From: a virus
Lineage: Duplodnaviria > Caudoviricetes
Virus record (IMG/VR): IMGVR_UViG_3300037605_000001
Coordinates: 1-42,489 of that record
Direction: 5' to 3' (one strand)
Length of the DNA: 42,489 nucleotides
Below, piece by piece: positions 1 to 41,914 of this stretch. The position numbers and the translations under genes were made by a program. Position 1 is the first letter of the stretch; each line of letters starts with the position of its first letter. The notes below the pieces were generated by a model. The model worked only from the letters and a program-made list of their open reading frames with translations. It was not told the origin of the DNA and did no database searches.

Positions 1-86
1 GCCCGAGGCCGTTCGGCCCCTTGTGTTGAATCCAAAGGGTTTTTCCGGTGTCCCACCGTGGGACATGATATCAAAAGCAAAGGGAA

Positions 87-126
87 TGGTGGGTGATAAG
101 AGATTCGAACTCCTGACATCTTCGAT
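87..126 (-). mobile_element. att core candidate: 3' half of a tRNA (probably tRNA-Val)
   Basis: Minus strand reads ATCGAAGATGTCAGGAGTTCGAATCTCTTATCACCCACCA: 3' anticodon stem, T-arm with GTTCGAAT loop, acceptor strand and CCA. The 5' half is absent. The Val assignment is from recalled similarity to alphaproteobacterial tRNA-Val. Confidence 0.8.
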
Positions 127-237: not shown

Positions 238-286
238 CCACATTCCTGACACACGGCTTCCTTTGGATCAATCCAAGGGAAAAACC

Positions 287-3613: not shown

Positions 3614-3650
3614 GTCTCAATAACGGTCCTCACTAGGACATAGAAACCCG
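3613..3650 (+). promoter_or_regulatory. 38-bp repeat, putative phage RNAP promoter (copy 1)
   Basis: AGTCTCAATAACGGTCCTCACTAGGACATAGAAACCCG is identical to 9790-9827; both copies are intergenic. Confidence 0.7.
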
Positions 3651-21646: not shown

Positions 21647-22540
21647 TTACGACAGGTCGGTGATCAGACCAGTCGCCAGTTGGTTGGTGTGCTTCAGACC
21701 GAACTCACCGACCATCATCCAACGGTCAGCGTCACCAGTCTTCGCCAGCTTCTCGCGGAACCAGTTGCGGAGCACGGCCAGCTTCCAGTGCTTCGGATCA
21801 TACATCAGGGCGTCCCCTGCACGGATGCGGCGGTTCTTGACCACTCGCACGGTGCCGAAGGGCGACTCATAGATGTTGATCACCTTGGTCAGCTTCTTCT
21901 CGCCGTTGTCCACTTGGACAGTGCGGCCCGAAGACTCTTGGAAGGCCGAGATGATCTTCGTGTCCGAAGGTTTCACCATCAGAACCGTGGCGTCCGAACC
22001 CTCGTTGTAGAGCAGTTCGTGGGTTTCCACGATCAGGGTTTCCGTCAGGGCGCGGGGAGTCCCACCGTTGTCCGAGGTCACGGCAGCGCCGATCTGGGCC
22101 TGAACGCCAGCGAACTCGCCAGCCGTGCCAGCAGCGCCGGGAACGTAGGTCTGACCAGTCCCGATCAGGGAGTGCTCAAGGTCCATCTTCAGCAGCTTGC
22201 CCGTCTTCATGGTTTCACGAGCCGTGATCTTGTCACGACCGTAGGTCTTCACGGCGTCCGAGGTCCCCGACACCTTGAAGGTTTCTTCGAGAATCTGGGT
22301 GCCGTTCTGGCGCATGGTCGGCTGGTCACGGTTGCTGTCAACAGCGTCCGCACCTTCCAGCTTGGCGTTCTTCGCCACAGCGCGCAGTTGGTCTTCCTGC
22401 CACTGGTAGAGCGTGTTGTGAACTTTCTCCGTCTTGATGGACGACAGGAACGGAGTGTCCGAGGGAGTGATCATCGAAATGTAGTCGGCAACGTCTTCTT
22501 TCTTACCGACCAGATCGAAAGACTTCAGGTGATCAGGCAT
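21647..22540 (-). CDS. major capsid protein
   Basis: EDV.D.I..I.P.DTPF.S, W..D.L, N.TQI, LAKTGD; strong codon bias; follows the scaffold gene. Confidence 0.92.
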   Translation of the reverse strand: MPDHLKSFDLVGKKEDVADYISMITPSDTPFLSSIKTEKVHNTLYQWQEDQLRAVAKNAKLEGADAVDSNRDQPTMRQNGTQILEETFKVSGTSDAVKTYGRDKITARETMKTGKLLKMDLEHSLIGTGQTYVPGAAGTAGEFAGVQAQIGAAVTSDNGGTPRALTETLIVETHELLYNEGSDATVLMVKPSDTKIISAFQESSGRTVQVDNGEKKLTKVINIYESPFGTVRVVKNRRIRAGDALMYDPKHWKLAVLRNWFREKLAKTGDADRWMMVGEFGLKHTNQLATGLITDLS

Positions 22541-22555
22541 ATTTGTATCCTTCTA

Positions 22556-23545
22556 TTATTGATCACGCATTGCAGCGAGGAAGGCTTCTGCGACATCATC
22601 AATGTCGCCAGATTCAGCAGCAGTCCTGTGCTTTGCTTTCAGCTTTGAGGTTGTGTTGTCTGTGGCTTTGTCGCCCTTCGAGACAGCCTTCTTGGGTGCC
22701 TTCGAAACTTTCTTGGTGACTTTGCCTTTAGCGGACTGGACTTCATCGAACTTCATGGCCTTGTGCATCATCAAGATTGCAGCAGGGTCCACGATTTCGT
22801 TGACCAGTTCGGCCTCCATGCCCTGAGACACGGCGTAGGTCCGAATCTTGGTGTAGAGGTCATCGTTCCAATCAGGGATCGCCTTGGTGATTTCCTTGAT
22901 TGCTTGCTGGGCTTGCTCACGGAGCATCTGAGAGCGAACCTGTTGGGTCTTGGTCAGGAACTCACGTCCCTCACGTTCAAGAGCGGCCAGTTCGCTTTCG
23001 GCGTTCTCCTTGGCAGACCTGAGAGCATCGAACTCGTCAGGGTCCAGTTCTCGTGAAGCGCGGAACAGGTCCACGTCCTTGTATTTCTCAGCTTCAGCCT
23101 TCGCCTTGGTGTAGCGGTCCTGAAGAACCTGAGCGGCAAACATGCCCTGTGCTTCCACGATCCGTCTCTGGGCAGCGAGTGCCTGAGACTTCTGAGTGAG
23201 GGATGCTTCCTGACCGTAGAGTCGCTTCAGGTCCTTGACCGATACCCGATGCTCTTTTCCGTCAACGGTGATTGCGACTTCAGCATCATCTTCGGCGGTT
23301 TTCGCCGCAGGTTTGCCTTCGTCTTCATCATCATCTTCAGAATCGTCGGGGTCGTCCTCAGACTCTTCTTCGCCCTCTTCGGCGTCTTCATCTTCCTCTT
23401 CCGCCTCTGCTTCCTCTTCGTCAGCTTCGGTGGTCGGTTCATCTTCATCGTCATCCGATAGATCGTCGTCGTCGGGTTCAGACTTCATGAACGCATTGAT
23501 TGCATCTTCAAGATCAGTCTCCTGATCAAACAGTTCCTCGTCCAT
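22556..23545 (-). CDS. capsid scaffolding protein
   Basis: Very acidic N-terminus, VDGKE..V...L...Y....TQKSQ.LA, IPDW; between portal and capsid genes. Confidence 0.85.
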   Translation of the reverse strand: MDEELFDQETDLEDAINAFMKSEPDDDDLSDDDEDEPTTEADEEEAEAEEEDEDAEEGEEESEDDPDDSEDDDEDEGKPAAKTAEDDAEVAITVDGKEHRVSVKDLKRLYGQEASLTQKSQALAAQRRIVEAQGMFAAQVLQDRYTKAKAEAEKYKDVDLFRASRELDPDEFDALRSAKENAESELAALEREGREFLTKTQQVRSQMLREQAQQAIKEITKAIPDWNDDLYTKIRTYAVSQGMEAELVNEIVDPAAILMMHKAMKFDEVQSAKGKVTKKVSKAPKKAVSKGDKATDNTTSKLKAKHRTAAESGDIDDVAEAFLAAMRDQ

Positions 23546-23559
23546 TGGATAGAGGCTCC

Positions 23560-23826
23560 TTATTCAAAAATTTCGAGTTGGTCTTCATCGACATCCAAGA
23601 CATCGGCTTCCGCTATGGCGATGAAGGTGTTGAAGGTGATGAGCAGTTCATCCAGAGCATGAGCCTCCATGTAGGCCCGCTCACGGGTCGCGTGATCACC
23701 GGGTTTCGAGTTGAACACCTGAGAGCGATATTGCTCCTTCAGGGCTTCCACGGCCTTGTCGAAGGATTCTGTTGAGACGATCCTTCGCAATTCCATGCCA
23801 ATTCTGACAGCTTCTTCTAACTGCAT
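23560..23826 (-). CDS. hypothetical protein
   Basis: ATG 23826 after AGGAG. Confidence 0.7.
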   Translation of the reverse strand: MQLEEAVRIGMELRRIVSTESFDKAVEALKEQYRSQVFNSKPGDHATRERAYMEAHALDELLITFNTFIAIAEADVLDVDEDQLEIFE

Positions 23827-23884
23827 TTCTCTCTCCTGAAATGGGGGGGGTGCCTCCCTTAGACTGATCCAAGGGAGGGCTTGT

Positions 23885-25891
23885 TTAGTTCGGGTTGAGG
23901 ACAGCCCTCTGACCGGACTCGGGGACGCGCTTGGCGAGTTCCATCTCTGTCCGATCCACCCATTGCTCATGCTCGAACTCCAACGGAGCCAGTTGAGCCT
24001 GAGTGGTCTTGAGGCCAGCATCAGCCCGTGCCTTGATCAGATCGGCCTGAGCCTTCATCTGGTCTGTCTCAGCTTTCATGAGCATCGCCTTGGCCTGAGC
24101 CTTCTGATACTCAATCTGAGAGCGCATCTGTTCCATCTGAAGCTGTTCGGCTTCACTGGGTTCAGGCGGCTTCATCTGGTCTGGCGGGGTCAGCAGACTT
24201 TGGATGTCTTCGATGCCCCTCTTCTCAAGCGCACGGGTCACAACTTCGTATCGACGGGCGTAGTCGTATCCAGCGGACAGGGTTGGGTCCTGACTGAAAT
24301 ACATGTCGATTTCGGTCCACTTCTGGGCCTCCATCTCCTGTTCACCATAGCCCAACGTCAGTTCGATACTGGCGGCTTTCCGCTCCTTCCACATCTTCGG
24401 TTGGACCTCGACGTAGGACCCAGTGACCTCGACATACTCAGCCTCTTCGATGTAATCGACAGCGGTGTGGTAGATCAGGTGCCAGAGGTCCTTCAGGAAC
24501 TTACCGAAGAGACGGGAGATGATCTTGGTCCGCTGTTGCGAAGCACTGATCAACTGTTCGACCATCCCCTGTGCGTTCTGCGTGGAGATAGCGTCCTTGT
24601 TCATCCCTTGGGACAGCTTGGAGATACCTGTGACTTCCTCTTTGTCCTCGTCAATCATCTGGATCAGATTGAAGACGAAGGGGTTCAGGGGGGCCTGAGG
24701 GATCGGTGCCAGACCGTCCATTCGACGGACGTTGACGATACCACCGAGGCGGTTCTCAAGGAGTTCGTTGGGGTTCTGGACCGTGCCAGTGAGCACTTGG
24801 AGCCGTGGGTTGTTTGTGATCATCGTGTGGTTGATGATCTGACGGATCAGGACGGTTCGTGCGTTCTGGACAGGGATCACAGACTTGGCGAAGTTCTCAC
24901 CAAAGAACGTGTGTGGGATCGGGAGTGGCACAAAGGCCACGAAGGGGATGCGGCTGATCTGCTCCTTCTCAAGGATCACACCGTTGCAGTAGATGATGCG
25001 CCAGAGGCGGTTCTTACCACGGCCTTCCATGTCGAGGCGGATGTAGCACTCGTGGACCACAGCTTCCTCGACGGACTCATCATAGCCATCATCGGTCGAG
25101 ATGATGTCGTCAATGGGTTCGAAGCGGAGTTGCTTCTCGTAGTCCATGTCCACGTCTTTGTGGCCGGAGAAGGTAATCTCATCGACCTTCTTGGGGTCGT
25201 AGCCTTCCTTCAACAGGTCCGACTTGGACTTGCTGACGCGGTGTATCACATACTTTGCCTTGGACAGGTCCGAGGTCCGAGAGGACACCAGAAGGTCTTC
25301 CGGCTGGACAGACTCGACACAGACGATACCCTTTTCGGTCTTGACTTCGAAGGTGCCGTTGTAAAGTCCGTTCTCCGAGATGTTCGCTTCGGTGAACTCG
25401 TAGTTCTCATACTCGCTGACCAGTGCAGTCAGTTCCTCATCGGTCAGCCCTTCGAAGTCGTATTCGTCCTCTTCGGACATCGACTTGTAGTAGACCTTGA
25501 CGCACGAAAACCGCTTGGTCAGGCCATCGGTCAGTGTGTCGTAGAGGATGTTTTCGCCATCGTTCTCCTTGAAGAAAACGTGTCGGCAGTATTCGGTCGC
25601 TTGCTTGGCGTCATCAACTGTTTCGCCGTGTTCAGGACGAAAGAACACAATCCTGTGGTGGGCCATGAAGGCTTCGAGGACGGTAGACCGCATGGAGTCA
25701 ACAGCATCGAACACGTCTCGACTGACGTATTTCGAGTCGCCCTTGTGCAGCGGCTTGGGGAGTTCCCCACGGAGGTATTGGTCAACCTCCATCCGCTCTT
25801 TGGCGAGTTTTCCATCGGCTAGGTGTTCAGAGTTGGAAATGGCCCTTGCAAGGATCGTGGCGATTTTGTCGTCGCTCAATGCCTTTGCCAT
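23885..25891 (-). CDS. portal protein
   Basis: 668 aa after TerL; S..VSRDV.D.V, A.QATEY..HVF and TGIS.LSQG motifs. Confidence 0.9.
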   Translation of the reverse strand: MAKALSDDKIATILARAISNSEHLADGKLAKERMEVDQYLRGELPKPLHKGDSKYVSRDVFDAVDSMRSTVLEAFMAHHRIVFFRPEHGETVDDAKQATEYCRHVFFKENDGENILYDTLTDGLTKRFSCVKVYYKSMSEEDEYDFEGLTDEELTALVSEYENYEFTEANISENGLYNGTFEVKTEKGIVCVESVQPEDLLVSSRTSDLSKAKYVIHRVSKSKSDLLKEGYDPKKVDEITFSGHKDVDMDYEKQLRFEPIDDIISTDDGYDESVEEAVVHECYIRLDMEGRGKNRLWRIIYCNGVILEKEQISRIPFVAFVPLPIPHTFFGENFAKSVIPVQNARTVLIRQIINHTMITNNPRLQVLTGTVQNPNELLENRLGGIVNVRRMDGLAPIPQAPLNPFVFNLIQMIDEDKEEVTGISKLSQGMNKDAISTQNAQGMVEQLISASQQRTKIISRLFGKFLKDLWHLIYHTAVDYIEEAEYVEVTGSYVEVQPKMWKERKAASIELTLGYGEQEMEAQKWTEIDMYFSQDPTLSAGYDYARRYEVVTRALEKRGIEDIQSLLTPPDQMKPPEPSEAEQLQMEQMRSQIEYQKAQAKAMLMKAETDQMKAQADLIKARADAGLKTTQAQLAPLEFEHEQWVDRTEMELAKRVPESGQRAVLNPN

Positions 25892-25899
25892 AGTAGTTC

Positions 25900-27507
25900 C
25901 TAGATTGCTTCAACGTAGAAGTCAGGTGTGATTGGAATGGGTTTCCAGACCCCATCGTGAATGTGGTTGACGATTGCCAAGGACATCACGCAGTCATCGT
26001 GGTTGCCTTCGTCGGCTTCCAACTTGCCACTCTCCTTCACCACGAAGGTCAGCATCTCCTGCATCGTGGTCTTGTCGTTCAGTTCCAGTTCGTTGATCCG
26101 AAGGGAGGCCCTAAGATCGTCAATGATCAGAGGACGGGTCTTCACATCAGTCCTGAAGCCGAGGTTGGGAGTGTCCACATCGGTCATCTTATCCTCGACC
26201 ACGTTCATGAAGACGTTGGGATAGTGCCAATGCTTGTAGAGAAGGTTGACCGTCAGAAGACCGTGGTTGTTGCTTTCCACCGCGATCTTTGCGTCATTGA
26301 AGAATTTGCCCAGTCGGAACAGGACCTCAGCGTAGTAGTCAGGATGCACATGACCCCGCCAGACAGCGACTTGACGCTTCTGGGAGTCTAGGACCTGAGC
26401 CACACTATAGTCCCCTCCCCTGACCCCCATCGCCACGTCAGCGCCGATGTAGTAAGTCTCGCCGGGGTCCAGATGATGATACATCAGGAGTTCCCCTTGG
26501 GGATGCTCACGCCACTCAGTGAGTTCGAGGGCTAACCTTTGGATCGGTCCAACGCACTCAGAGATACGCTTGGTCAGGAACTCAGGGTCGAACACAGGCC
26601 GACCAGTGGTCAGGAAGGCTTCGTCAGGCTCACAGGGGTATTCCTGCTTGAACAGATCGAGTCCGTTCTGGTTCACCTTCAGCCGCCGCCAGTAGACCTG
26701 TTCATCGTCAAGGCCATAGCGTTCCGCCAGTTCCGCTTCGTCAGGCGTCTTCTGGAATCCCTTGGGGGTCTTCCTCCGGTATTCCTTCTGAAGGAACCAA
26801 GGGACGAACACAGCCATGTATCCGTTCTCACCATTCACAGCCCCCTTCCACATCTCGTAGAAAGGTCCGGTCACACCGTTGGCCGTGGACTCAATGAAGA
26901 CAGCCGTGCCATCAGTCTCAGGGATCGACTGAAGCAGACCATTCAAGTTCTCACGGGCGATGCTTTCCTTCCAGAAGGCCAACTCGGACAGGTGGGCGTG
27001 GGTGATCGTTTCACCACGAGCGATGCCATCACCGCCAGCCGTTGCCACCATGTAGGATGAGTCCAGCTTGTCGAACACCAGTTCCTTCCGAGAAGAGTAG
27101 CTGGTGCTGGGCCTGAGGATTTCTGGGACGTTCTCATGATACCGCTTGGTCATGTTGAACAGAGCGGTGGTCGAGTCCGACTTGTGTGTCACCACGATAG
27201 CCTTCTTGGCCTGTGACTGGGAAACCTTGTGGTAGAGCCAGCCACCAACGTAGGTGGACATCCCTTGCTGACGACCTTTCAGGATGATGATCCTGACCCT
27301 GCCCATCTCTGCCATCTGCTTTTCGATAGCGGCTTCAAGGATGCGTTGGGCGTCATTCAGGACGAACGGTTCGATTTGAGCGGCCTTGGTTCTGATCTTC
27401 AGAGCCTTGGCCGAGTAGTAGGGAAATTCTTCTTTGAGTCTGAGGCGAACCTTTTTCATCGCCTCAAGTTCAGCCATTGGGTTCGTAATCCTCCCAGTCG
27501 TCGCCAA
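25900..27507 (-). CDS. terL: terminase large subunit
   Basis: LKGRQQGMST, HLSE.AFW, ESTANG, GADVA.G..GDYS, HDDCVMSLAI. Start may be 27477. Confidence 0.96.
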   Translation of the reverse strand: MATTGRITNPMAELEAMKKVRLRLKEEFPYYSAKALKIRTKAAQIEPFVLNDAQRILEAAIEKQMAEMGRVRIIILKGRQQGMSTYVGGWLYHKVSQSQAKKAIVVTHKSDSTTALFNMTKRYHENVPEILRPSTSYSSRKELVFDKLDSSYMVATAGGDGIARGETITHAHLSELAFWKESIARENLNGLLQSIPETDGTAVFIESTANGVTGPFYEMWKGAVNGENGYMAVFVPWFLQKEYRRKTPKGFQKTPDEAELAERYGLDDEQVYWRRLKVNQNGLDLFKQEYPCEPDEAFLTTGRPVFDPEFLTKRISECVGPIQRLALELTEWREHPQGELLMYHHLDPGETYYIGADVAMGVRGGDYSVAQVLDSQKRQVAVWRGHVHPDYYAEVLFRLGKFFNDAKIAVESNNHGLLTVNLLYKHWHYPNVFMNVVEDKMTDVDTPNLGFRTDVKTRPLIIDDLRASLRINELELNDKTTMQEMLTFVVKESGKLEADEGNHDDCVMSLAIVNHIHDGVWKPIPITPDFYVEAI

Positions 27508-28183
27508 TCTCAGCAGCCATCGCTTCGAACTCAGCCGAGGCGAAGCTGGACAGGGCTGTCACTTCTTCGATCTTCTTCAGGCGGCGCTTCTCGTATTCCG
27601 GCCCCATGCCCTTCTCGACAGGCTGTTTGGGCTGTTCGATCACGACCTCTTGGTATTCCTCCTTGGCGAGTTCCAGCAGCCAGTCCTCAGGTTTCATATG
27701 AGTTGTCGTGGCGTGGCTGATCGTCGGAGCCTTAGAGTGGGTGTAGTTGGCGAGTTCCTTCAGGGCAGCTACCTGCTCCTTGGGGCTTAGAACGCCAGAC
27801 CGGACGAGACACTCCATCATCCAGAGAGGGTTAATCTCAAGTCCGGTCCTGTCCCGAACATCGTCGGGAAGGAATTTGTAGTTCGATGGATCAACCATCT
27901 TTGTCGCTTCATTCATGCGATGCGCTACCTCTTGCTGGGTCATACCCTGTTTCCACTTCCGGTTCTTTCGTGTGGTCACGAAGTTCTGGATGCGGCGTTG
28001 CAGTAGGGCGTCTTCGGGGGACAGCCGCCACGTCAGATCACGAGGGCGATCTTCTGGGGTGGTCCCAAATTTCTCACAGGCCATCCGCTCAATGTCCTCA
28101 TCAGTGACATGCGGATACTCGAACCACTCGGTCAGGAGTCGGCCTGTATTCAGACACATTTCTGGATCAATCGGGGATGCCAT
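27470..28183 (-). CDS. putative terminase small subunit
   Basis: Directly upstream of TerL; PL.MM...ALKELANYTHSK segment. Confidence 0.5.
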   Translation of the reverse strand: MASPIDPEMCLNTGRLLTEWFEYPHVTDEDIERMACEKFGTTPEDRPRDLTWRLSPEDALLQRRIQNFVTTRKNRKWKQGMTQQEVAHRMNEATKMVDPSNYKFLPDDVRDRTGLEINPLWMMECLVRSGVLSPKEQVAALKELANYTHSKAPTISHATTTHMKPEDWLLELAKEEYQEVVIEQPKQPVEKGMGPEYEKRRLKKIEEVTALSSFASAEFEAMAAEIGDDWEDYEPNG

Positions 28184-28239: not shown

Positions 28240-31200
28240 TTACGACAGTGCAGTCGGGATTTGCTTCGGATCGACCTTCTGGACACCTTGGCGACCCATG
28301 ATGAACTGGATCAGTTCAGGATCACCGAGGGCTTGGATCGGGATTTGGTTGGCCTCCAAGATGCTGAGGAAGATGTTGTAGTCTTCCGCACCAAGTTCCT
28401 GCATCACCTGAACCCAAGTCTCCTGAGTCCTCTGAGCATCCTTGGGGTGAATACCGTAGGAGTCGTGGATCGGGTTGAAGGTGTTCAGAGGCTCTTGCTC
28501 CTGAAGACGCTTGTGAGTCTCACGCAAGGCCCAAGCATCGTTCTGGTGCGTCATGAACGCGGCCAGACCTCGACCTGCCATCTTTGTGTCGGTTCCACGG
28601 ACACCTAGAGGCACCACGTTACCGTCACCGAGGGCAATTTCAGCCTTCTCGAAGATGGGGTTCTGCTTGAAGCTGTATTCCAGCATCATGCCATCCTTGG
28701 TCGGAACCTTGACCGTCTCTCGACCAGCAGCCTTCACAATGTCCGATACCTTCTGAGCGAAGTTCAGGTATTGCCTCATGCCGGGGAACTGGACGTTCAT
28801 CTGCTTGATCAACTCTTGGTTCATCCGAGCATAGAAGTAGTTCTCGTAGGCCGAGCGGACTGCATCAGCCCTGCTACCGAACTTGGTCCCGTTCGAGACG
28901 AACTTTCCGGTCAGACCATCAGCAACTTCGATGACGAACTTGTCACCACTGGGGACGATCCGCTTGCGCTTCATCGGGGGCTTCGAAGGCTCACCATCAG
29001 CGTCAAAGTGCGGGGTCACAAACAGATGCCCATCTTGGGAATCCATCTCAGAGATGATGTTCTCAGGGACCGGGATCAGACCGTTTTCCTCGACACCGAA
29101 GATCGGGACATCCTTGCCAGCAATCTCGGACAGGGCGTCCTTGAAAGCCTTCTTGCGGGAATTGAAAGCAGCAGCGTAGAGATACGTCCCTACAGGCTTC
29201 TTGAAGATTTTCCGCAGCACGGACCCCGGCAGATCAAGGTCAGACAGTTCGGGGATTTCCATTGTGGCGGGTCCCGCAACCTGCATGTAGATGTCACCAC
29301 CTTGACGCATATCAGGATCACCAGAGGCACCCTCAGGAGGGAGCATACCAGTGGACTGAAGAACGTCAGTGTAGCCCATCACCATACCAGCGATCTGATA
29401 GGCGTTGTTCGAGGCGTCCAACTGGACGATGAAGTCTGTCTCGTAGTTCTGAGCCAGATCGGCACGAACCTCAGGGTCCTGAAGCAGTTCCTTGGGTTTC
29501 AGCTTGCTCTTGTCTTTGTGACGTTCCCTTGCCCAGTCCACCATGCTCTTGACTTCATGGGCGGCGTTCAGGGCTTGGAAGAACCCTTCCGAACCTTTGA
29601 CCAGCTTCCCTACGGAAGTCAGGTTGCCACTCTTGTCCTCAAGACGGAGACGACCAAAGGGGTCTTCAGCCAGCTTGATCAGGTCATCGACCATCGTGCC
29701 TTCGAAGATAGCCATACGGCGTTCAGCAGGAGGCTTCTTGTCGAAACCAAGGAGGTTTCCGAGGCCGTGGAACACATAGTTCAATCCAGCTTCACCACCC
29801 AGCTTGTCCTTCTGTGCAGAGCGCATCAGACCCTTCATGATGTCACCAGCCTGAGAGTGTGCCAGCCCGTTACGGCTGTAGACACGCAGGTTGGCACCAG
29901 CCATCCACTCCTGACGGATCAGGGTGTTTCCGGCTTCACGGGTTTGGAACAGGAGTTGGGCCACGGTTCTGACGTTGGAGTCATCACGCTTTCCATCCTT
30001 GTCCTTTGGTCTGAGGATGTCGCCAATCGGTCCCAGCTTCGTCGCGTTCACACCGGACAGACCCTTTTCGATCTGGTCCAGCATCTTAGGATGGATCGAA
30101 TGGTAGGTCTGACGCATGGCGTTCAGGAAGTTGAAGATCGGGCGGAAGGCCGGGGTCACTCGGTCACGGGGGATGTCCTTCAGAGCACGGAAGTCACCAT
30201 CTTCAGTGACGTTGTGTCCATACTCGACATCAGGCCCACTCTGAGGAACCATCTTGCCGACTTGCTTGACTGCCTTGGCGATCTGAAGCCGTTCATAGAA
30301 CTCAGGGTCCAATCCATCCGACTTGGTGGCGTTGGGATTGTGGAACTGAAGGTCCACCACCATCAGGGGCTTGGAGGGATCGGTTGGGTCCTTGATGAAC
30401 TTGCCATCATACTTGAGACGGGCGTTGTTCCGAACCATTCGGCGCTTCAGCATACCCTTGTCTTCCATCGCGTTCAGAGCGTTGTTCACGATCTGGGCGG
30501 CTTGGGGGCCGGGGATGGAGTAGAGTTCCGCATAGGCGTCAGAGAGCATATTCACTGTCACACGGTCGGTCGCCATGTCATAGATCAAGGCTTCGACACG
30601 GTGCTCAGGACTCTTCGTCAGTCCTTGCCTGTGGGCTTCCAGCTTCTCGACATCATTCGAAGCACGGTCGATGGACTCGTAGATGTCTTCGATCCGCTCT
30701 TCGACCATCTGGGCCAGACCAGTCCGACCTTTGGCAGCTTTGGGCTTCTTGACCTCGACAATGCTGGGTTCACCCTTGGTCCGCTTCTTGCGGGCTGGGG
30801 TTTCAGCCTTGCGAACTTCAGTGGCCGGGGATTCCGGTTCAGGCCCTTTGGGGTCCTTTGGATTTGATCCAACAGAGACACCACCTTCGCCATCGTCACG
30901 GGGCTTACGCAGCTTGCGAAGCGCCCTTTCTGCCGTTGTCTCAGCAGGACGGTCGGCAGCGGGCCTTTGATTGTCATTGGCGGCTTTCCGAGTCCGCACC
31001 TTTCGGGGCTTCTTGGCTTCCTTCAGCTTCTCATCGAAGGCTTTCTCTTTTTCGGCCTGAACCGGATCGGCTTCACGCTCAATGGCGTAATCGTTGCCCG
31101 CCGCAGCGAGGGGGATGAACTTCGTGCGCCAAGCCTCCACAACAGCCCTCTGCCCTCTCTTCGGGAAGATCAGAGGCAGCATCTCATCTACCAACTTGAA

Positions 31201-33411
31201 GCGGTCGGCACGAGTCATTGCGGGGCTATTGATGGACTCAGCGAGGTCCATGATCATCTGAAGCTGGGTAGAGTCCAGACTGGGGGTTGCGGCTTCGATG
31301 TCAGTCAGAAGGTTCTTGTATCGGCGGTCGCCTTCGATTGCTCTCTGCTTCCGGCGACTTGAGGTCAGCCCTTTGTCAGCAGCTTGGAATTTCTTGAGCA
31401 CCTGATCAGGTTCGGGACCAATCTTCAGCTTACCCTTCCGGTCGAACTGAGGCTGATACTCAGGATTGATCCGTTGACGGACAGCCTCTTGCAGAGCGAT
31501 GATGTCGTTCTTCTTCATCGTGCGGGAGAACCCACCAATGTCTTCAGCATACATCTGAGCAGCACCCTGAGGGGCCAGACCTTCACGCTCAAGCTGTTCC
31601 AGAGCATCTACAACCTCATCACCAGCCTTGCCAATGCGGGCTTCCCAGAGACGGTCCCCTTGCAGCATCGGGTCATCGTTCTGAGGAACCTTACCCGTCT
31701 CGAAGATGGAGGATCGGTTCGAGGCTTCCAGACGGTAGCGACGAGCGAGTTCTTCAGGAGAGACTTGAGTGCTTCCTTGGGATTGGGTCTTTGGTTGGCC
31801 GGGAGACTTCTGACCTCTGGCCGCAGCAGCACCTTGGGCAGTCTGAAGTTTCAGGTTGGCCTTGGCTACCTGATCAGCCAGCTTCAGCTTGGCGAGGGTA
31901 TCACGAGAGGTTTCCCCTTGGATCGGTCCAACGGACTTCTGTTGAGCCTTGGCCGAGTCCACGAAACGCTTCACGCGGGAACGGTTGTTGGTCAGTCTGT
32001 CGATCTGACGTGCAACACGGTTGACAGCGATCAGGGTCCCAGCGGTCCCGATGGAACCAGAGGCGGCAACAGCGATACCTCCGAGAGAGGTAGTGCTGCG
32101 GGGATCGGTTATGTCAAAGCGGCTGGTCTTGGCCGAGAGGCCCCCCATGTCACCTTTGTCACCCTTGGTGAACCTCTGGATCGTGTTGATCTGGTTCGAG
32201 AGAGACTTGAGCCGTTCAACGTCAGCATCAGAATATCCAGACGACTTGAGGGCTTCATAAGCCATCTTCACGTCTTGCTGGAAACTCTCAGGCGACGAGG
32301 AAGACTGCGTTTGGGTTGTCTTCACCAGAGCGTTCAGAGCGACCTCAGCATCTCGACTGCCTTGGTATTTTGCCAGCTTGCGGAGGTCGCTTGCGATCAC
32401 CCCTACTTCAGCACGAATACCACGAAGGGCAGCGTTGGCAGCAGCTTTGGCCGAGCCTGTGTCTGTGTCATTCACATTGGCGAGGACAGCCATGTCACCA
32501 TCAGCGGCCTTCAGGAGGCGGTCGGCAGCACGGATGTCGTCTTCGGACATCTCACCACGGTCAATGCGGCTGAAGAAGTCCCCAGCGTTCTCTGGGGTCA
32601 TGGCGTCAGTGGCACGGATAGCCCCATCAACGGTGACAGCAGAGCCAGCACCGAGCAAACCTTCACCGACAACCATCTTGGGATCGACTTGCCAGCCTTC
32701 TTCAGTTCCGATGGAGCCACCAGTCTGTTGGATAACGGACTGACCACTTTCGGTCACGCCTTCAACGACAGCCCGACGACCGATACCGGAGACACCGGGA
32801 GTCAGGGCGTTAAGGGCACCAGAGGCGGCGGCAGTTGCGGCACCAGCGGCAATGTCACCACCAGTGACCTCAGTGCGGCCATCGTTCTCAGCCCGTTCTT
32901 TGGCGGTCGGTCCAAGGACCTGAAGCACTTCAGGGGCAGCGGCACCTACGAGGCCACCGAGGACGCCACCAACGGCGGCACCTTTGGGACCAAGGAACCC
33001 ACCAGCTTTGGCACCGATTTTGGCACCAGCCCAGCCAGAGGCTAGAGTTGCCCCGAACTGGGGCGCTTGTTCAGCTACAGCACCGGGAGCGGCGTTCAGG
33101 TCGAAGCCTTCTTCTCCCGGTTTCAGGAATTTCTCAGTATAGGTTTTGTAACCCTCAGGGCGGTCAGTCAGCCCTCGGAGCCAGCCCTCAGCCCCTTCGA
33201 AGCCAAGAACCTCAGCCGTATCAGCCACAGATTCAAGCGGACCATCGACAGCGGCCTCAGCCTTATCCCAGAAGGAGGGTTCTTTTTGTGATTGCTGGGC
33301 CGAGGACTGGAGGCGGCGGTATTCCGCCCCCAGCTTACGGACCATCTCTTCATTACCCTCTTGGTGGGCGATCTTGATCCCAGCCTCAAGGCGTTTCAGT
33401 TGGTCACTCAT
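28240..33411 (-). CDS. large internal virion protein with C-terminal T7-type RNA polymerase domain
   Basis: Hydrophobic Gly/Ala N-terminus. C-terminal motifs in order: LRVYS...QAGDIMKGL, GFDKKPPAER, QLDASNNAYQ, DIYMQVA, RKIFKKPVGTYLY, HQNDA, IHDSYG. Confidence 0.9.
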   Translation of the reverse strand: MSDQLKRLEAGIKIAHQEGNEEMVRKLGAEYRRLQSSAQQSQKEPSFWDKAEAAVDGPLESVADTAEVLGFEGAEGWLRGLTDRPEGYKTYTEKFLKPGEEGFDLNAAPGAVAEQAPQFGATLASGWAGAKIGAKAGGFLGPKGAAVGGVLGGLVGAAAPEVLQVLGPTAKERAENDGRTEVTGGDIAAGAATAAASGALNALTPGVSGIGRRAVVEGVTESGQSVIQQTGGSIGTEEGWQVDPKMVVGEGLLGAGSAVTVDGAIRATDAMTPENAGDFFSRIDRGEMSEDDIRAADRLLKAADGDMAVLANVNDTDTGSAKAAANAALRGIRAEVGVIASDLRKLAKYQGSRDAEVALNALVKTTQTQSSSSPESFQQDVKMAYEALKSSGYSDADVERLKSLSNQINTIQRFTKGDKGDMGGLSAKTSRFDITDPRSTTSLGGIAVAASGSIGTAGTLIAVNRVARQIDRLTNNRSRVKRFVDSAKAQQKSVGPIQGETSRDTLAKLKLADQVAKANLKLQTAQGAAAARGQKSPGQPKTQSQGSTQVSPEELARRYRLEASNRSSIFETGKVPQNDDPMLQGDRLWEARIGKAGDEVVDALEQLEREGLAPQGAAQMYAEDIGGFSRTMKKNDIIALQEAVRQRINPEYQPQFDRKGKLKIGPEPDQVLKKFQAADKGLTSSRRKQRAIEGDRRYKNLLTDIEAATPSLDSTQLQMIMDLAESINSPAMTRADRFKLVDEMLPLIFPKRGQRAVVEAWRTKFIPLAAAGNDYAIEREADPVQAEKEKAFDEKLKEAKKPRKVRTRKAANDNQRPAADRPAETTAERALRKLRKPRDDGEGGVSVGSNPKDPKGPEPESPATEVRKAETPARKKRTKGEPSIVEVKKPKAAKGRTGLAQMVEERIEDIYESIDRASNDVEKLEAHRQGLTKSPEHRVEALIYDMATDRVTVNMLSDAYAELYSIPGPQAAQIVNNALNAMEDKGMLKRRMVRNNARLKYDGKFIKDPTDPSKPLMVVDLQFHNPNATKSDGLDPEFYERLQIAKAVKQVGKMVPQSGPDVEYGHNVTEDGDFRALKDIPRDRVTPAFRPIFNFLNAMRQTYHSIHPKMLDQIEKGLSGVNATKLGPIGDILRPKDKDGKRDDSNVRTVAQLLFQTREAGNTLIRQEWMAGANLRVYSRNGLAHSQAGDIMKGLMRSAQKDKLGGEAGLNYVFHGLGNLLGFDKKPPAERRMAIFEGTMVDDLIKLAEDPFGRLRLEDKSGNLTSVGKLVKGSEGFFQALNAAHEVKSMVDWARERHKDKSKLKPKELLQDPEVRADLAQNYETDFIVQLDASNNAYQIAGMVMGYTDVLQSTGMLPPEGASGDPDMRQGGDIYMQVAGPATMEIPELSDLDLPGSVLRKIFKKPVGTYLYAAAFNSRKKAFKDALSEIAGKDVPIFGVEENGLIPVPENIISEMDSQDGHLFVTPHFDADGEPSKPPMKRKRIVPSGDKFVIEVADGLTGKFVSNGTKFGSRADAVRSAYENYFYARMNQELIKQMNVQFPGMRQYLNFAQKVSDIVKAAGRETVKVPTKDGMMLEYSFKQNPIFEKAEIALGDGNVVPLGVRGTDTKMAGRGLAAFMTHQNDAWALRETHKRLQEQEPLNTFNPIHDSYGIHPKDAQRTQETWVQVMQELGAEDYNIFLSILEANQIPIQALGDPELIQFIMGRQGVQKVDPKQIPTALS

Positions 33412-33420: not shown

Positions 33421-35295
33421 TTAGATACCTCGTTGTCTCAGGTATTCTTCAACTTCAGGATCACCCTGAGTCTGGCCTCCATTGGACGAATCCAAAGCGC
33501 CGCCACCGGACGGTGCAGGACCCTGCCAGTAGCCACCGGGGAGGTCATAGGTCCCCTCAAGGACACCAGCGAGATACGGGGATGCGGCACCAGTCGTCCC
33601 GATGAAGCGATAGAGTTCACGCTGCATCAGTCGGCGTTTCTGTTCCACGTCCTGAGGATCGTCGCCGGGGGCCGGAAGGAAGGCACCAGCGTAGTCGGCA
33701 ATCTCAGCGCCAGTGTAGGCAGCACCCGTATCAGCACGGAGGATCGACTGAAGGAACGCACGAGCCGTGTTGGCAGCAGCGCCGGATAGACCAGAGTTAC
33801 CAATGATGGTGTTCAGGACAGCCCCAGTCACACGACCATTGGCATTGTTCGCGGCCCATGTCTCAAGACCAGTCCGAAGGGCCGTGACTTGCTCCGGTCC
33901 CATAGTGGTCCAGATGTTGTCGAGGTCCTTGAAGGCCCCGATTGCACGGATTGCGTAACCGTAGTTCTTCTCTTGGGACTCACGCTGGAATGTGAACGAA
34001 GGGACACCCTCACCGGACACGAAGTCGGCATTGGGGATACCACCAGCACCCATCGTGACGTTCTGTTGATCAGAGCGGCTACCGATGCGGACATCTCGGA
34101 GTCGGGTTGTTGCAGGGACAGGAGTTCCATCCTCACCTGTGATGTGAGGGACACCATTGATCATCGTGCCAGCCAGAACCACTTCCTGACCTGTCTCAAG
34201 GTCACGGCCCACCACGTTCATTGGGAGGTTGTAGGCTCGGTCGGAGGATTGGCTTAGGCGGGCTTCCTGCATGGCGAGTTGTTGTTGACGGAACTGGTTG
34301 TCCCGGTCGTTCTGATTCACACCCATGACGTTCTTGGCAGCGTTCCCGATACCAGAAGCCCAGTCATCGCCAGAAAGCAGACCAGCGCCGATTGCCAGCC
34401 AGCGGTCATCCCGTTGGTCAGCAGTCATCTGATCCCAGCCTAGCCAGCGGGAGATTGCACCCCCACCCTCAGCGTTGCCGAGGCCAAAGAAGTCCTTGAA
34501 GGAACCACGAGGCTCGAACTCTTCAGGTGCTTGGGTCGAGGGTCCACGAGACGATGCGATAGCGTCTGTGCCTACCTGACCAGCAGTCACACCACCACCA
34601 GCCAAAGCTGGCATGGGGTTGTCCAGTGCATAGGCTTCTTCAGGAGAGATACCTATGGACTCAATCGGGGCCTGATCATCCCGAAGACCCTGACGTTCAA
34701 GGTCAGCGAGGACTTCAGGGAACGGCTTCTGTCCGGTCGCCAGAGACGTGACCGAGACAGGCTCAGGTCCAGCCACAGGGAACTGGGTGATTGCGTTGGG
34801 GTTGGCTTGAGCCAGAGCACCCTGAGTGGACAGCATGACGGGGTTGATACCGATGCCATCCCCATCCTCAGGACCACGGCCACCAGACAGAGCGCCGGGA
34901 CCTTCGGCCATGCTTTGTTCGATCTTGGTGATGTAGTTGCGGGTTTCCTCAGGGAGGCTGTTCAGGTTGCCATCCCATTTGTCAGCGTTCCCGGCCCCCC
35001 AGTTGTAAGCAGCCAGAGCACGTCGATGATCACCGTTGTAGCGGTTGAGCATCTTGGACATATATTCCGAACTGAACCTGAGGTTCTCATTGGGGTCCCA
35101 AGGGTCGGACAAAGGTGACACACCGAACCCCGGCTGTCGGGCCGTATCAGGCATAACCTGACCGAGGCCCTGAGCGCCCACTGGGCTGACTGCCTTCGGG
35201 TTCCAGTTGCTTTCGGCCTTGATCTGAGCCGTGAAAAGCCGAGGGTCCAGACCGTTCTTCTTGGCGTATTCCATCGCCAGAGTTCTGTAATCCAT
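33421..35295 (-). CDS. internal virion protein with lytic transglycosylase domain
   Basis: AESNWNP.AVSPVGAQGLGQVMP, ALAAYNWG, ETRNY. Confidence 0.9.
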   Translation of the reverse strand: MDYRTLAMEYAKKNGLDPRLFTAQIKAESNWNPKAVSPVGAQGLGQVMPDTARQPGFGVSPLSDPWDPNENLRFSSEYMSKMLNRYNGDHRRALAAYNWGAGNADKWDGNLNSLPEETRNYITKIEQSMAEGPGALSGGRGPEDGDGIGINPVMLSTQGALAQANPNAITQFPVAGPEPVSVTSLATGQKPFPEVLADLERQGLRDDQAPIESIGISPEEAYALDNPMPALAGGGVTAGQVGTDAIASSRGPSTQAPEEFEPRGSFKDFFGLGNAEGGGAISRWLGWDQMTADQRDDRWLAIGAGLLSGDDWASGIGNAAKNVMGVNQNDRDNQFRQQQLAMQEARLSQSSDRAYNLPMNVVGRDLETGQEVVLAGTMINGVPHITGEDGTPVPATTRLRDVRIGSRSDQQNVTMGAGGIPNADFVSGEGVPSFTFQRESQEKNYGYAIRAIGAFKDLDNIWTTMGPEQVTALRTGLETWAANNANGRVTGAVLNTIIGNSGLSGAAANTARAFLQSILRADTGAAYTGAEIADYAGAFLPAPGDDPQDVEQKRRLMQRELYRFIGTTGAASPYLAGVLEGTYDLPGGYWQGPAPSGGGALDSSNGGQTQGDPEVEEYLRQRGI

Positions 35296-35304: not shown

Positions 35305-36249
35305 TTAGCCTTTCTTCAGACCAGCAGCAGCCGTGACACCGCCAACAACCTGTTGGAAGATGGACGGGGATTGGGTGACTTGAGACTGGTAGCCAGATTG
35401 ACCGAAGTTGCCTCCGACGATGCCCATGTATTTCTGGATCAGGTCGAGGTCAGACTGAGACATCTCACGCTGGCCGTTGATTTCGTTCTGGGCTTGCTGT
35501 TGGAACACTGAGCCAGCACCGAGAGCATCGCTGTAGCCAGCCCGCTGGGTATCCCATCCTTGGGTCATCAGGTCGTAGCCAGTTCGGCCTACGTCTCCGA
35601 GGGCATTGTTGGCCGCAAGGCGTTCCGAGGCGACACGAGCGTCAACATCGTTAGCCAAACCCATACCTTGATTGAAGGCGTCACCACGAATCTGAGAGGA
35701 TACGGCAGCAACACGATCAGCAGCAGCGTTCTGGTTCAGGGAGTCGAGGACCCCTGCCCTTGTCGAATTGATGTTGCCTGTGCCGGAGGCATTGGAGTTC
35801 ACGTCAGCAGATTGCAGAGAGAGCATCTGGTTGGCGTCACGGGCCACGGCGTCGATCTGACCTTGGATATAGGGGTTATCCGCCATCTGCATCCCTTGGT
35901 CGCGGATCATGGAGGTCCGGTCGGCAGTCGAGGTCCCGAACATCTGTTGGGCGTTCTGGGCGTATTGACCGAGGGCACCAGCGAGGTCGCCACCAGCGGC
36001 CACCATCTGACCACCGATACTCTGAGCGGTCCCTGTGCCAGTATTGAACAGACCATTGGCAGCGGTGGTCTGCATGTCGTTCATGTCAGCCGTGTAGTCG
36101 GTGATCCCGGCGTTCATGCCGAGGGCTTTGTCGAGGGCTGTCTGGGCTTGGCTGAAGCCGCCCTTCAGGTAATCTTGTTGGGGTTCCCAAGGATTTGACT
36201 CGAAAGGAGCCTGTGTCACCTTGGTTTTGGATTTGAATAAGCTACCCAT
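35305..36249 (-). CDS. internal virion (ejection) protein
   Basis: G/A/Q/N-rich 314 aa; first of three core genes. Confidence 0.7.
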   Translation of the reverse strand: MGSLFKSKTKVTQAPFESNPWEPQQDYLKGGFSQAQTALDKALGMNAGITDYTADMNDMQTTAANGLFNTGTGTAQSIGGQMVAAGGDLAGALGQYAQNAQQMFGTSTADRTSMIRDQGMQMADNPYIQGQIDAVARDANQMLSLQSADVNSNASGTGNINSTRAGVLDSLNQNAAADRVAAVSSQIRGDAFNQGMGLANDVDARVASERLAANNALGDVGRTGYDLMTQGWDTQRAGYSDALGAGSVFQQQAQNEINGQREMSQSDLDLIQKYMGIVGGNFGQSGYQSQVTQSPSIFQQVVGGVTAAAGLKKG

Positions 36250-36735: not shown

Positions 36736-38349
36736 TTACCTCTTTGAGATTAGGAGGACATCTGCATCGAAACCGCCAAATGACACATCGACACCCACGG
36801 GGAACTCAAGTCTCATGGAGAGGTATCGACCGTTGATCCGAGTGTCATACTTCGGGAACCCCCAGATCGGGAGTTCGAGCATCTGAAGCCACTGGACTGG
36901 GGCGTTCACGTCCGAGGACTGACCGAACTGGATTCGGATCGTCGCCTGTTCGTTGGAGGTCTTGAACTGAGGCACGATGCTTCGGATCATCTTTCGCCCA
37001 TAGAGCGGCAGTCCGAGTTCATCCATGTCCTTGCCTAGGAACAGACCATAGGCGGGCCAGAGCACTTCCTCAACCACAGCGTTGGGCAGGAAGCCTCCTT
37101 CCAGATCGTCCAAGAAGAACGACTGAGCCGGGAAGGTATCGTGACCAGACGAAGCGAGGATCAGAGAAGGCGGACGTTGACCGTCATAGGATACCCAAGA
37201 GCCGATCTCACCAGACCATGTGAGCATGTCCTCCCAAGGGGCGGTCTTCACGTTGGACGAGTAAGTAGAGCCAACCACCTGAGGCATGTCCACGAAGGTC
37301 CATGTGTTTGCTCGGTAGTTGAAGATTGCAGCTTGGTTACAGCCTGATGTCTGGGACACTGTGAGTGCGTTTGAGCCTTCCACACTGGGATAGCAGAACC
37401 CAATCTCACCCTTTGACCTGTCATGGAACACGAAACAGCGGTCCTTGAGGTTGAAGTCCAGGGATTTGAAGACCCCTTCGTAGACACGTCCGGTTGCAAT
37501 GGACACCTTGCTGAAGCCATCGTGCATGATGATGTCGTTCTCGGAGAAGACGTAATGCTTCCCATCGACCTCGACCGCACAGTTCGGAGCAATCATCCCT
37601 ACGTCATCGAAGACCTTCTGGAACCGGAAGACGAAGGGCGCACCAATGAAGTCCATACGGAAGGTCTGGGTCTTGCCATAGATCATGAACACGTCAGCCA
37701 AGGCTAGACCATCGACCAGAGAGTCTCGACAGTCGTTCAGAATGTTCTCACCTGAGAGAGACGCAAGGTTGGTCGGGTCCCAGTTGGCGGGTGGTGCGCC
37801 AGCTTGAGCGGCATCAGACCACTTCACCATCACTGGATATTCCTCAACACCTTTGGAGACATTGATCGCAATCAGGAAGTCCTTGAAGGACCTGAGTGAC
37901 TTGGTGTGCCACCCTGAGTCCCATGCAGGGATTGGAGAGAAGGCACCATCGGTAGGCTCAAGGCGGTAGACGGGGACATCTTCAATTCGGTTGGAATAGG
38001 TCACACCACCAAGGAATGTAGTGGTGATTTGCTCGGTTCCCGTCACCAAAGACCCAGACGGTGTGACATCAGTTGTCACCCCAGAGGTCCTCTGCTCCAT
38101 CGAACCGTCACTAAAGACCGTGATGAGGAACCCTGCCCCTTCTGGCCCACCACCTTCGAACACTCCTACAGGGGTTTTACCGTAGCTGTAGTCAGCTTCA
38201 AACTGCTTGAAGACGGAGTAGCGGGATACCGCCCCATCAGAGAAGCGGAGGTTCTTGGCCTCTTGCCAAGCATTGAATGGGATGTCGTGGGCTTCGAGGT
38301 CAGTTATGACCCCAACCTCGCCCACCCCCCGATACGGAACGGTGGGCAT
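36736..38349 (-). CDS. tail nozzle/stabilisation protein
   Basis: 537 aa, beta-rich; N.RF.DG and VKWSD motifs; position. Confidence 0.7.
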   Translation of the reverse strand: MPTVPYRGVGEVGVITDLEAHDIPFNAWQEAKNLRFSDGAVSRYSVFKQFEADYSYGKTPVGVFEGGGPEGAGFLITVFSDGSMEQRTSGVTTDVTPSGSLVTGTEQITTTFLGGVTYSNRIEDVPVYRLEPTDGAFSPIPAWDSGWHTKSLRSFKDFLIAINVSKGVEEYPVMVKWSDAAQAGAPPANWDPTNLASLSGENILNDCRDSLVDGLALADVFMIYGKTQTFRMDFIGAPFVFRFQKVFDDVGMIAPNCAVEVDGKHYVFSENDIIMHDGFSKVSIATGRVYEGVFKSLDFNLKDRCFVFHDRSKGEIGFCYPSVEGSNALTVSQTSGCNQAAIFNYRANTWTFVDMPQVVGSTYSSNVKTAPWEDMLTWSGEIGSWVSYDGQRPPSLILASSGHDTFPAQSFFLDDLEGGFLPNAVVEEVLWPAYGLFLGKDMDELGLPLYGRKMIRSIVPQFKTSNEQATIRIQFGQSSDVNAPVQWLQMLELPIWGFPKYDTRINGRYLSMRLEFPVGVDVSFGGFDADVLLISKR

Positions 38350-39394: not shown

Positions 39395-39753
39395 GGGTCG
39401 TCTCCTTTGGGTCCACAAATTTCAAATCAATAATAATAATAACAATAATAACCCCGTTTTTTGAAGTCACTTTCGCCAACCCCCGACCCCTTCTGATATG
39501 CCTAAAAATCGGCCTGTAATACACATTCAAGATGTATGGAGTTGGTAGGAAAGTCCTTTGTTTTCAAGGGGTTAGCTGATCATTCCTGTGTTGTGTGTCA
39601 TTAGTGTGCATATGACCTAACGAATGGTCCACATATAGCACCAACGCAAGGTGACGGGATAGGGCCTAAGTGGAAGTAATGCCCTGCGAAACTTGGGCCT
39701 GTTACACTATTACATCCTTTTAACGCAACACGCTGTCATAGGAGAAATGAGCC

Positions 39754-40128
39754 ATGCGTAAACAAGTGAAACTGACGTTCAACATGGGTGCTAAGGCACT
39801 GTCTGACGTGTTCAAAGAAGACGTAATCAAGGCCGCTTGCACCTGTTCTGGCGGGTGCTTTGTGGTCAATGGCACTGGCTACTGGGTGGAAGGTGAAACC
39901 CATGCCAAGCGGTTCAAAGGTGAACCTCAAGCTGAGGATGCGCTGGTCATTGAACTGACCTGTGAGGCCGACAAGGTGGAAGGCGTATATGCCGACATGC
40001 AAGCGGAAATCGCTCATGCCGCCGCGTTCTGGTTCCAAGAGATTGACTGGGTGCATGTTACCCAAGTCGAGATGATCGGTCGGCACTTCTCTGTTGCTGC
40101 ACTGAATAACGCTGTCGCCGCTGAGTGA
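39754..40128 (+). CDS. hypothetical early protein
   Basis: AGGAGAAATGAGCC-ATG leader. Confidence 0.8.
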   Translation: MRKQVKLTFNMGAKALSDVFKEDVIKAACTCSGGCFVVNGTGYWVEGETHAKRFKGEPQAEDALVIELTCEADKVEGVYADMQAEIAHAAAFWFQEIDWVHVTQVEMIGRHFSVAALNNAVAAE

Positions 40129-40193
40129 CGGAATAGGCCCTAGGTGAAAGCCTAGGGTTTTCCCTTAGACCAAATCCAAAGGAGAAAAGAGCC

Positions 40194-40443: not shown

Positions 40444-40478
40444 CTGCCTCTATAAATGAGGCCACTTATTGAGACTAT
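40444..40478. promoter_or_regulatory. 35-bp promoter-like repeat, class 2, copy 1
   Basis: CTGCCTCTATAAATGAGGCCACTTATTGAGACTAT; one mismatch to 41489-41523. Confidence 0.6.
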
Positions 40479-41722: not shown

Positions 41723-41914
41723 GGTCAGAATGATTGACCTATATTAGGTGCATCGCAGGAGAGGCCCTGAGAGGCCCCTAGGAAGCCCATGAGCCTGTCA
41801 GGCTATGGATGCACCCAAGATCGCCCTAAGAGCCTGTAGACCCTGCCCTGTTGCCTCTGGTGACGGGATAGCCCCTACACGGTAGTCGTTACCACTTCCT
41901 ACACGGTCCCTTGC

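Follow-up and report, generated by a model that had tools for sequence, protein, structure and literature searches.

Here we describe a viral protein of 1723 residues that joins a putative ejection protein to a T7-type RNA polymerase (RNAP). It is encoded on the minus strand, at 28240..33411, of a 42,489-base stretch (hereafter the window), which spans positions 1 to 42,489 of the linear, 93% complete Caudoviricetes record IMGVR_UViG_3300037605_000001. An earlier note on this DNA had proposed that the protein is a half-size virion RNAP (vRNAP), co-ejected with the genome of a small, apparently temperate podovirus. Our results fit that proposal, and we give a probability of roughly 0.6 to the 1723-residue protein being a co-ejected, active early RNAP. 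This reading is based on its fold, its invariant catalytic residues, its place in the operon, its lack of cysteine and a two-polymerase layout that is conserved among relatives.

The gene starts with ATG and its product falls into four parts. An N-terminal part modelled as all-helical (residues 1-799, 31015..33411) contains Gly/Ala-rich hydrophobic stretches at 139-168, 247-265 and 443-464 and is likely to be the part that crosses the envelope. It is followed by a Lys/Pro/Glu-rich linker (residues ~800-899, 30715..31014) of low model confidence and poor conservation, by a small folded subdomain (residues 900-1035, 30307..30714, predicted local confidence (pLDDT) ~90) and by a T7-type RNAP core (residues ~1036-1723, 28243..30306). 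In the AlphaFold model of residues 900-1723, built on a 45-sequence alignment (pLDDT 92.9, predicted template-modelling score (pTM) 0.89), the core comprises a short thumb, a palm, fingers with an insertion of ~70 residues beyond T7, a specificity-loop hairpin and a C-terminal PTALS. The hairpin strands (residues 1582-1612) precede the block that contains the equivalent of T7 H784, at a span of 49 residues versus 53 in T7. The earlier note had assigned the last ~650 residues to the polymerase. The RNAP assignment held, and its boundary is now refined: the core begins around residue 1036-1049 (~680 residues), and the 900-1035 subdomain packs against it in the model, occupying the place of the much larger T7 N-terminal domain (some VIA-align rows reach into it).

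The model, Foldseek and VIA-align all reveal a right-hand polymerase fold. The matches listed by Foldseek against the PDB are T7 or mitochondrial RNAPs only (best E 2.5e-17), and VIA-align superposes the domain on T7 RNAP with Z 32.7 (509 residues, root-mean-square deviation 3.2 Å), versus Z 19.0 for the best N4 mini-vRNAP (554 residues, 4.3 Å). Profile matches to PHROG 414 (RNA polymerase, E 4.3e-23) and Pfam PF00940 (25.1 bits, cut-off 22), and a match of the family profile to T7 RNAP chains (E 2.4e-8), agree with this assignment. An assembly artefact can be ruled out because the open reading frame (ORF) is intact in one sequencing run, possibly the source run, and is covered in a second study by pieces more than 99% alike; no RNA holder is listed for the sequence. 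The N-terminal half has few recognizable kin: no PHROG family matched at E <0.03, every BFVD match had a template-modelling score below 0.2, and the best PDB matches were generic four-helix bundles (Z 10.7). In the Atlas, its neighbours are viral proteins without names; in one set, 12% of members have an LPD22 domain. These weak matches do not demonstrate a new fold.

The coordinates that the earlier note gave for the ORF and its four motifs proved correct. Motif A provides Asp1332 (T7 D537, 29416..29418) and motif C His1649-Asp1650 (T7 H811 and D812, 28462..28467); motif B provides R1400, K1404 and Y1412 (T7 R627, K631 and Y639, at 29212-29214, 29200-29202 and 29176-29178), and the DxxGR motif is altered to GANLR (29884..29898), with Arg1176 at the position of T7 R425. 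All lie on the minus strand. Conservation was assessed in a family of 49 proteins (1303-1965 residues, query included, ~40-100% identical to the query domain), obtained from word-seeded searches that scored 7,988 and 7,987 candidates and returned 45 and 49 proteins. In T7 numbering, taken from the alignment of RNAP sequences used for the first tree (below), R425, Q435, D438, K441, D537, D569, Y571, R627, K631 and Y639 are invariant in 49 of 49, as are D731, H784, D787, H811, D812 and the stretch I810-S813; thus both catalytic Asp and the motif B triad of the earlier note are among the fixed positions. Of these, R425, D537, R627, K631, Y639, H784, H811 and D812 have catalytic roles in T7. Even the C-terminus is in register with T7, with 75 versus 73 residues past motif C, and its ending hardly varies across the family (PTALS in 38, PTAVS in 7, PTSLS and PTAMS in 2 each).

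In an exhaustive profile search, 44 representatives scored under E 1e-30, consisting of full-length fused proteins and shorter pieces; below them came more distant fused proteins and then ordinary RNAPs of ~800 residues. Seven of seven of the more distant fused, Cys-free relatives retain the metal- and nucleotide-binding positions. Two distant relatives keep the Asp of the altered motif (DxxxR or DxxGR), and GANLR is therefore likely to be derived. The whole protein had no tblastn match at 1e-5 in 50,697 phage records; with the domain alone as query and E up to 1, 92 partial and weak matches appeared, most of them to ordinary RNAPs. The first of these, the tape measure protein of Rhizobium phage L338C, was rejected (hhalign 0.3%, PHROG annotation tape measure). 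Viral contigs yielded nothing to a single-sequence scan and six loci to an alignment-based one. Four distant proteins of ~1650-1790 residues also carry a C-terminal RNAP: P0064, P0065 and P0066 are Cys-free and branch with the 1723-residue protein's family, and P0149 has four Cys and branches among T7-type RNAPs, possibly as a separate fusion. One homolog (L009:1286-6200) is present as two ORFs, of 317 residues and then 1328 residues to the contig end, either a natural split or an assembly error.

The genomic position of the gene points to the virion. On the minus strand, a 537-residue virion structural protein (36736..38349, phrog_3287), likely the tail nozzle given its position, is followed by a 314-residue Cys-free DNA ejection protein (35305..36249, phrog_4287), by a 624-residue Cys-free ejection protein with an N-terminal lytic transglycosylase (SLT) domain (33421..35295, library matches) and by the 1723-residue gene, the largest and last of the block, whose product is mostly helical. 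PHROG and Pfam matches thus bear out the earlier description of the gene as last of three, after a transglycosylase protein. Among 11 loci, terminase genes lie downstream in 10 and the nozzle-ejection-SLT block lies upstream in 6; loci without visible neighbours are cut by contig ends (five of them upstream), and two of the loci, L003 and L010, are one contig.

Cysteine is absent from all 1723 residues and from 46 of the 49 family members, and the whole family contains 3 Cys in 84,325 residues. The ejection and SLT neighbours likewise have none, here and in all five relatives counted. By contrast, nozzle-like proteins contain 4-9 Cys, stand-alone T7-type matches of 750-950 residues have at least four in 76 of 76 cases, and 14 reference cytoplasmic chains contain 1.36%. 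The N4 vRNAP has 0 Cys in 3500 residues. Pseudomonas phage DEV gp71 and N4 gp50 are described as Cys-free and as ejected or proposed to be so; DEV gp71 is further described as a virion component encoded in the ejection operon (PMC11445570). The N4 linker is given as ~100 residues (PMC13434306), comparable to the linker here, and podovirus ejection proteins are said to carry variable cargo domains, the N4 vRNAP included (PMC4819975).

A second, ordinary polymerase completes the picture. The plus strand of the window encodes a split T7-type RNAP, presumed cytoplasmic, with an N-terminal piece (263..1105, likely start ATG 287) and a C-terminal catalytic piece containing 8 Cys (1832..3613), followed by SSB, RusA, primase/helicase, DNA polymerase and nucleotide enzymes. 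In four of four genomes this RNAP is split at the boundary between the N-terminal and polymerase domains, the large piece containing DxxGR; in the window and in G001 the two pieces are separated by small genes. Because this Cys-containing enzyme is present in all four genomes, a cytoplasmic duplicate would be unnecessary. A recent copy of the split RNAP can be rejected as the origin of the fused domain, since the two share 31 bits and ~18% identity and fall in separate clades. The minus strand bears the tail, ejection, terminase, SU10-type portal and capsid, and lysis genes; downstream of the 1723-residue gene, 21647..28183 encodes a likely terminase small subunit, the terminase large subunit, SU10-type portal, scaffold and SU10-type capsid. 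The head and ejection genes are of SU10/phiEco32-like and not of T7 type. Isolates are distant: the best terminase match is 39% (Roseobacter phage CRP-7), the best RNAP matches are 32%, and the capsid reaches 37%. The best 30 of 320 capsid matches include, at ~35-37%, phages that we take to be phiEco32-like and tf-like.

The phage is likely temperate, as the earlier note had suspected. Three relatives (G001, G002 and G003; genomes of this group measure 42-46 kb) share the gene order and the split RNAP, and each has an integrase gene (phrog_1, E 1e-34 or better) that closes its early region. G003 is a complete virus record of 45,729 bases, and the other two loci sit in Paracoccaceae genomes, with G+C below that of their flanks (0.55 vs 0.62 and 0.58 vs 0.63-0.65). 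The G001 prophage (locus L007, ~103.0-147.5 kb of C48), carried by Pseudogemmobacter lacusdianii CPCC 101601, encodes a homolog of 1707 residues. It is bounded by a 46-bp, 93% repeat at a tRNA-Thr gene (G001:C48:103034-103079 and 147440-147485), and integration sets the early region and the integrase apart from the split RNAP genes. For G002, no attachment (att) repeat above 13 bp and no tRNA turned up at the ends of the element. The window itself has an attP-like stretch (84..126) that matches, at 86%, the 3' portion of tRNA-Val(CAC) in both Paracoccaceae hosts and contains no tRNA gene or Rfam match. No integrase was found among the 54 window ORFs scanned and, by analogy with the relatives, we predict that it lies within the missing stretch between the window ends.

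To explain these results we propose that the 1723-residue protein is likely packed in the head and ejected across the envelope together with its two neighbours. The 314-, 624- and 1723-residue proteins would form an envelope channel, in which the helical residues 1-800 would traverse the inner membrane or be anchored there, and the linker would allow the polymerase to refold in the cytoplasm. The refolded enzyme would then read phage-specific early promoters and transcribe the early genes, the integrase (in relatives) and the split RNAP, which in turn would read its own promoters for replication and late genes. If the ejected enzyme stays anchored, transcription could also help draw the DNA in; in fact, the DEV vRNAP has been proposed as an ejection motor (PMC11445570).

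Two classes of repeated motif may provide these promoters. Class A, the best candidate for the ejected enzyme, occurs on the plus strand at 39651..39673, 40125..40147 and 41860..41882. All three copies lie in the early region in the early sense, versus 0.39 expected, and three were reached in 2 of 100 shuffles, a significance inflated by the choice of the motif by eye after the repeats were seen. On a matrix derived from other genomes, early-sense sites are top-ranked in G001 (ranks 1-3), in G003 (ranks 1-2) and in the held-out locus L004 (rank 1). Class A sites fold weakly and not alike. Class B has five copies in the window, with 0.00 expected: directly after the split RNAP gene (3613..3632, plus strand), after the DNA polymerase gene (9790-9809, plus strand) and three times in the early region facing the late operon (40457-40476, 41502-41521 and 41703-41722, minus strand). 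Its analogues in G001, G002 and G003 differ in sequence and keep the kinds of position. Since these positions are kept and T7 has phi1.1A/B directly after gene 1, class B likely serves the split enzyme; a different idea, class B read in the opposite orientation as hairpin promoter of the ejected enzyme, was dropped given the positions in three relatives.

Several observations weigh against our reading. In the polymerase itself, the DxxGR Asp is replaced by Gly in 46 of 49 members and the motif Gly is retained in 20 of 49, next to the universal Arg, and the position of T7 G640 is Ala in 38 and Glu in 7. The thumb region (68 residues) is shorter than that of T7 (93) and little of the T7 N-terminal domain is present, because of which the enzyme may need a cofactor or be poorly processive. 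As for the promoters, the three class A copies of the window rank 2, 179 and 516 of 84,934 on the family matrix, its top match lies at 35946, antisense within a late gene, and no high-ranking early-sense site was found in G002 or L005. Class A may even be a host promoter: one G003 site is part of a -35/17/-10 array of sigma-70 type, and a sigma-70-like site occurs in the window at 41915, so that host RNAP may serve early genes. Some class B copies in relatives also point in the early sense. Lastly, the absence of cysteine speaks at best for envelope passage and not for function; the packaging and activity of the 1723-residue protein are what we infer from sequences and models.

How far do these points carry? 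Altered DxxGR and G640 positions and a short thumb could mean that the domain is a catalytically dead RNAP fold, retained as a DNA-binding clamp of the ejection channel. We find this very improbable, since the metal- and nucleotide-binding positions are fixed throughout the family and in seven of seven more distant fused, Cys-free relatives, and two distant relatives retain the Asp; moreover the N4 mini-vRNAP is reported to be active with TxxGR (PMC4496689). It is scarcely more credible that the protein stays in the producing cell as a second RNAP, made late and serving late genes, either in the cytoplasm or tethered to a membrane. The gene does lie within the late operon, and no solved ejection protein could be matched with confidence to the N-terminal half (its comparison to known internal virion protein (IVP) D relies on a low-confidence multi-domain model, pTM 0.42). 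Against this stand the cysteine-free composition, unlike that of every stand-alone match counted, and the gene order, in which the protein comes third, after an ejection protein and a transglycosylase that are also Cys-free. In addition, a late gene is poorly placed for starting late transcription, and class B already faces the late operon and follows the split RNAP gene as phi1.1A/B follows T7 gene 1. A more serious alternative, which we nonetheless regard as unlikely, accepts ejection and activity and makes the enzyme mainly mechanical or preparatory (DNA pulling, short RNAs or primers), with host RNAP making the early mRNAs. Sigma-70-like early sites (41915 in the window, 38600 and 35869 in G003, 141824 in G001), the -10-like hexamer that ends class A in G001, G003 and L004, and the motor role proposed for the DEV enzyme all suit it. 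So does induction: a lysogen would not contain the ejected enzyme, induction must therefore start without it, and another route to early transcription exists. However, sigma-70-like sites between 39000 and 42489 do not exceed the chance expectation (3 vs 1.9 +/- 1.5, for an E. coli-type consensus), the specificity-loop hairpin is retained at full length, and transcription-driven pulling would still yield early RNA and hence be partly the same mechanism as a co-ejected early polymerase.

The remaining question concerns ancestry and is compatible with co-ejection. The 1723-residue protein may share an ejected ancestor with the N4 vRNAP and have lost a large C-terminal domain, a scenario we consider doubtful. 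The common operon position, the succession of helical part, linker and RNAP, the loss of the DxxGR Asp on both sides and the split second RNAP of both phage groups would all follow from it. The sequences argue otherwise. The much higher structural score with T7 RNAP is matched by hhalign (91.5% to T7, 0.1% to mini-vRNAP) and by the family profile, which gives 40-54 bits on nine T7-type chains, 21-25 on two and 8.5 on one, whereas four N4-like vRNAP cores score no higher than 0. Motif A reads QLDASNNA and does not match ExDGxxxG, the signature reported to define the N4-like (Schitoviridae) vRNAP family (PMC10654107). The IHDS of motif C and the H784 equivalent are of T7 type and both are absent from N4 vRNAPs. 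Moreover, no protein of N4 vRNAP size, in fact none above 1965 residues, appears among the best 150 matches from 1.84 billion sequences, and the second RNAP is split at a point unlike that of N4 gp15/gp16. In two maximum-likelihood trees, one of 28 sequences and 517 columns (12 of the 49 members) and one of 34 sequences and 514 columns (6 members), three groups separate on long branches: the family together with its distant Cys-free relatives (support 100), the N4-like vRNAPs (100) and the T7-type RNAPs, among them the split enzyme (100 and 93). The phylogeny suggested in the earlier note thus places the family on its own long branch. Because both trees are unrooted, allowing a sister relation, and identity between the groups is 13-19%, a deep common origin keeps some standing. 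As for "half-size", the label holds for length and fails as a description of a trimmed N4 enzyme, since structure, profile and motifs are closer to the T7 type.

Other features of the genome deserve mention. A palindrome, TTRGA-N4/5-TCYAA, has 24 copies in the window from 263 to 41976 (for example at 263, 3802, 9835, 28210, 36260, 39093 and 40165), versus 0.3 in shuffles, with 28 copies in G003, 16 in G001, 22 in G002 and 0 in ~78 kb of host flank. It mostly overlaps ribosome-binding sites on either strand, lies inside genes in some cases and is not early-specific; the copies are likely sites of a dimeric, repressor-like phage DNA-binding protein, or RNA hairpins over start sites. Short tandem-like repeats (CACCC-T/A-AGAT units) at 41528-41660, between class B copies, could possibly be an origin or packaging region. 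A 288-residue Lys/Ala/Pro-rich early protein of no known family (40537-41403, also in G001, G002, G003 and L004) is a candidate DNA-binding cofactor or repressor. Positions 11113-15605 form a nucleotide-metabolism block (dGTP/dATP diphosphohydrolase domain, ThyX, a MazG-like protein and a ribonucleotide reductase that weakly matches a class II insertion), and 16000-16311 encodes a 103-residue stand-alone N-terminal domain of the NAD-dependent ligase type (PF22745), also found in G001.

The size of the N4-like enzyme (3500 residues) and its large C-terminal domain hamper study. A version of ~1700 residues with an enzyme of ~700-820 residues would reveal which parts an ejected polymerase needs; the family would also help decide if ejected polymerases evolved repeatedly, and it offers compact RNAPs of new promoter specificity. 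It also makes one ask how an induced temperate phage, lacking the virion enzyme, begins transcription. The prophage copy in the sequenced P. lacusdianii CPCC 101601 makes virion proteomics feasible. Quite speculatively, and as a picture that is more likely wrong than right, we envision that undescribed temperate podoviruses of alphaproteobacteria, ~42-46 kb in size, independently invented the N4 strategy. In these phages, a minimal Cys-free T7-type RNAP fused to the tip of an ejection protein would read its own early promoters, reel in the genome and give an infection-only early burst absent from the prophage, tying polymerase injection to the choice between lysis and lysogeny.

How does this system compare with known ones? 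One named entry is UniProt A0A6J5NLE6, a protein of 1819 residues from an uncultured Caudovirales phage that is homologous over both halves, Cys-free and keeps the catalytic motifs, and is distant (25% in structural alignment). It bears only the database name "DNA-directed RNA polymerase, phage-type", and we found no study of it. For the group itself, searches of open-licence PMC and bioRxiv gave no description and turned up N4-like, jumbo-phage and unrelated papers; phage catalogues, in supplements or in closed journals, may mention it. PMC8515928, for one, mentions N4-like enzymes only.

In fact, we know of no single-subunit virion RNAPs characterised outside N4-like phages. T7 gp1 and the Autographiviridae RNAPs provide the closest solved fold and share motifs A, B and C, the H784 block, the specificity-loop hairpin and the C-terminal register. 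They differ in that the enzyme here is ~18% identical, fused to a 1000-residue ejection protein, Cys-free and encoded in the late operon, with a short thumb, the fingers insertion and a ~135-residue subdomain in place of most of the N-terminal domain. Like T7 gp15/gp16 and gp36/gp37 of the phiRIO-1 group (IVP C/D), the protein is helical and encoded by the last, largest gene after the nozzle; here, however, the transglycosylase is on the middle protein, and the last one carries as its cargo an RNAP whose lineage we did not find in the 50,697 phage records. N4 gp50 and DEV gp71 offer the closest parallel in layout. In these Schitoviridae too, a Cys-free protein encoded by the last of three ejection genes (gp52-51-50 in N4) consists of a helical N-terminal part, a flexible linker and a single-subunit RNAP with its DxxGR Asp replaced, a second, two-piece RNAP is encoded in the genome, and late genes lie on the opposite strand. 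Their proteins are reported to measure 2,842-3,820 residues (PMC10654107) versus 1723 here. The N4 RNAP domain (1106 residues) lies mid-protein before a C-terminal domain of ~1400 residues, unlike the ~680-820 residues at the very C-terminus here, and N4-like phages have genomes of ~70-80 kb, are mostly lytic, and possess N4-type capsid and portal and hairpin promoters, whereas this group has 42-46 kb, an integrase in relatives, SU10-type capsid and portal, and candidate promoters that are not consistent hairpins. Thus, as far as sequence comparison tells, the 1723-residue protein resembles the N4 vRNAP in layout without being a member of its family, and the putatively ejected RNAP here likely comes from a separate lineage.

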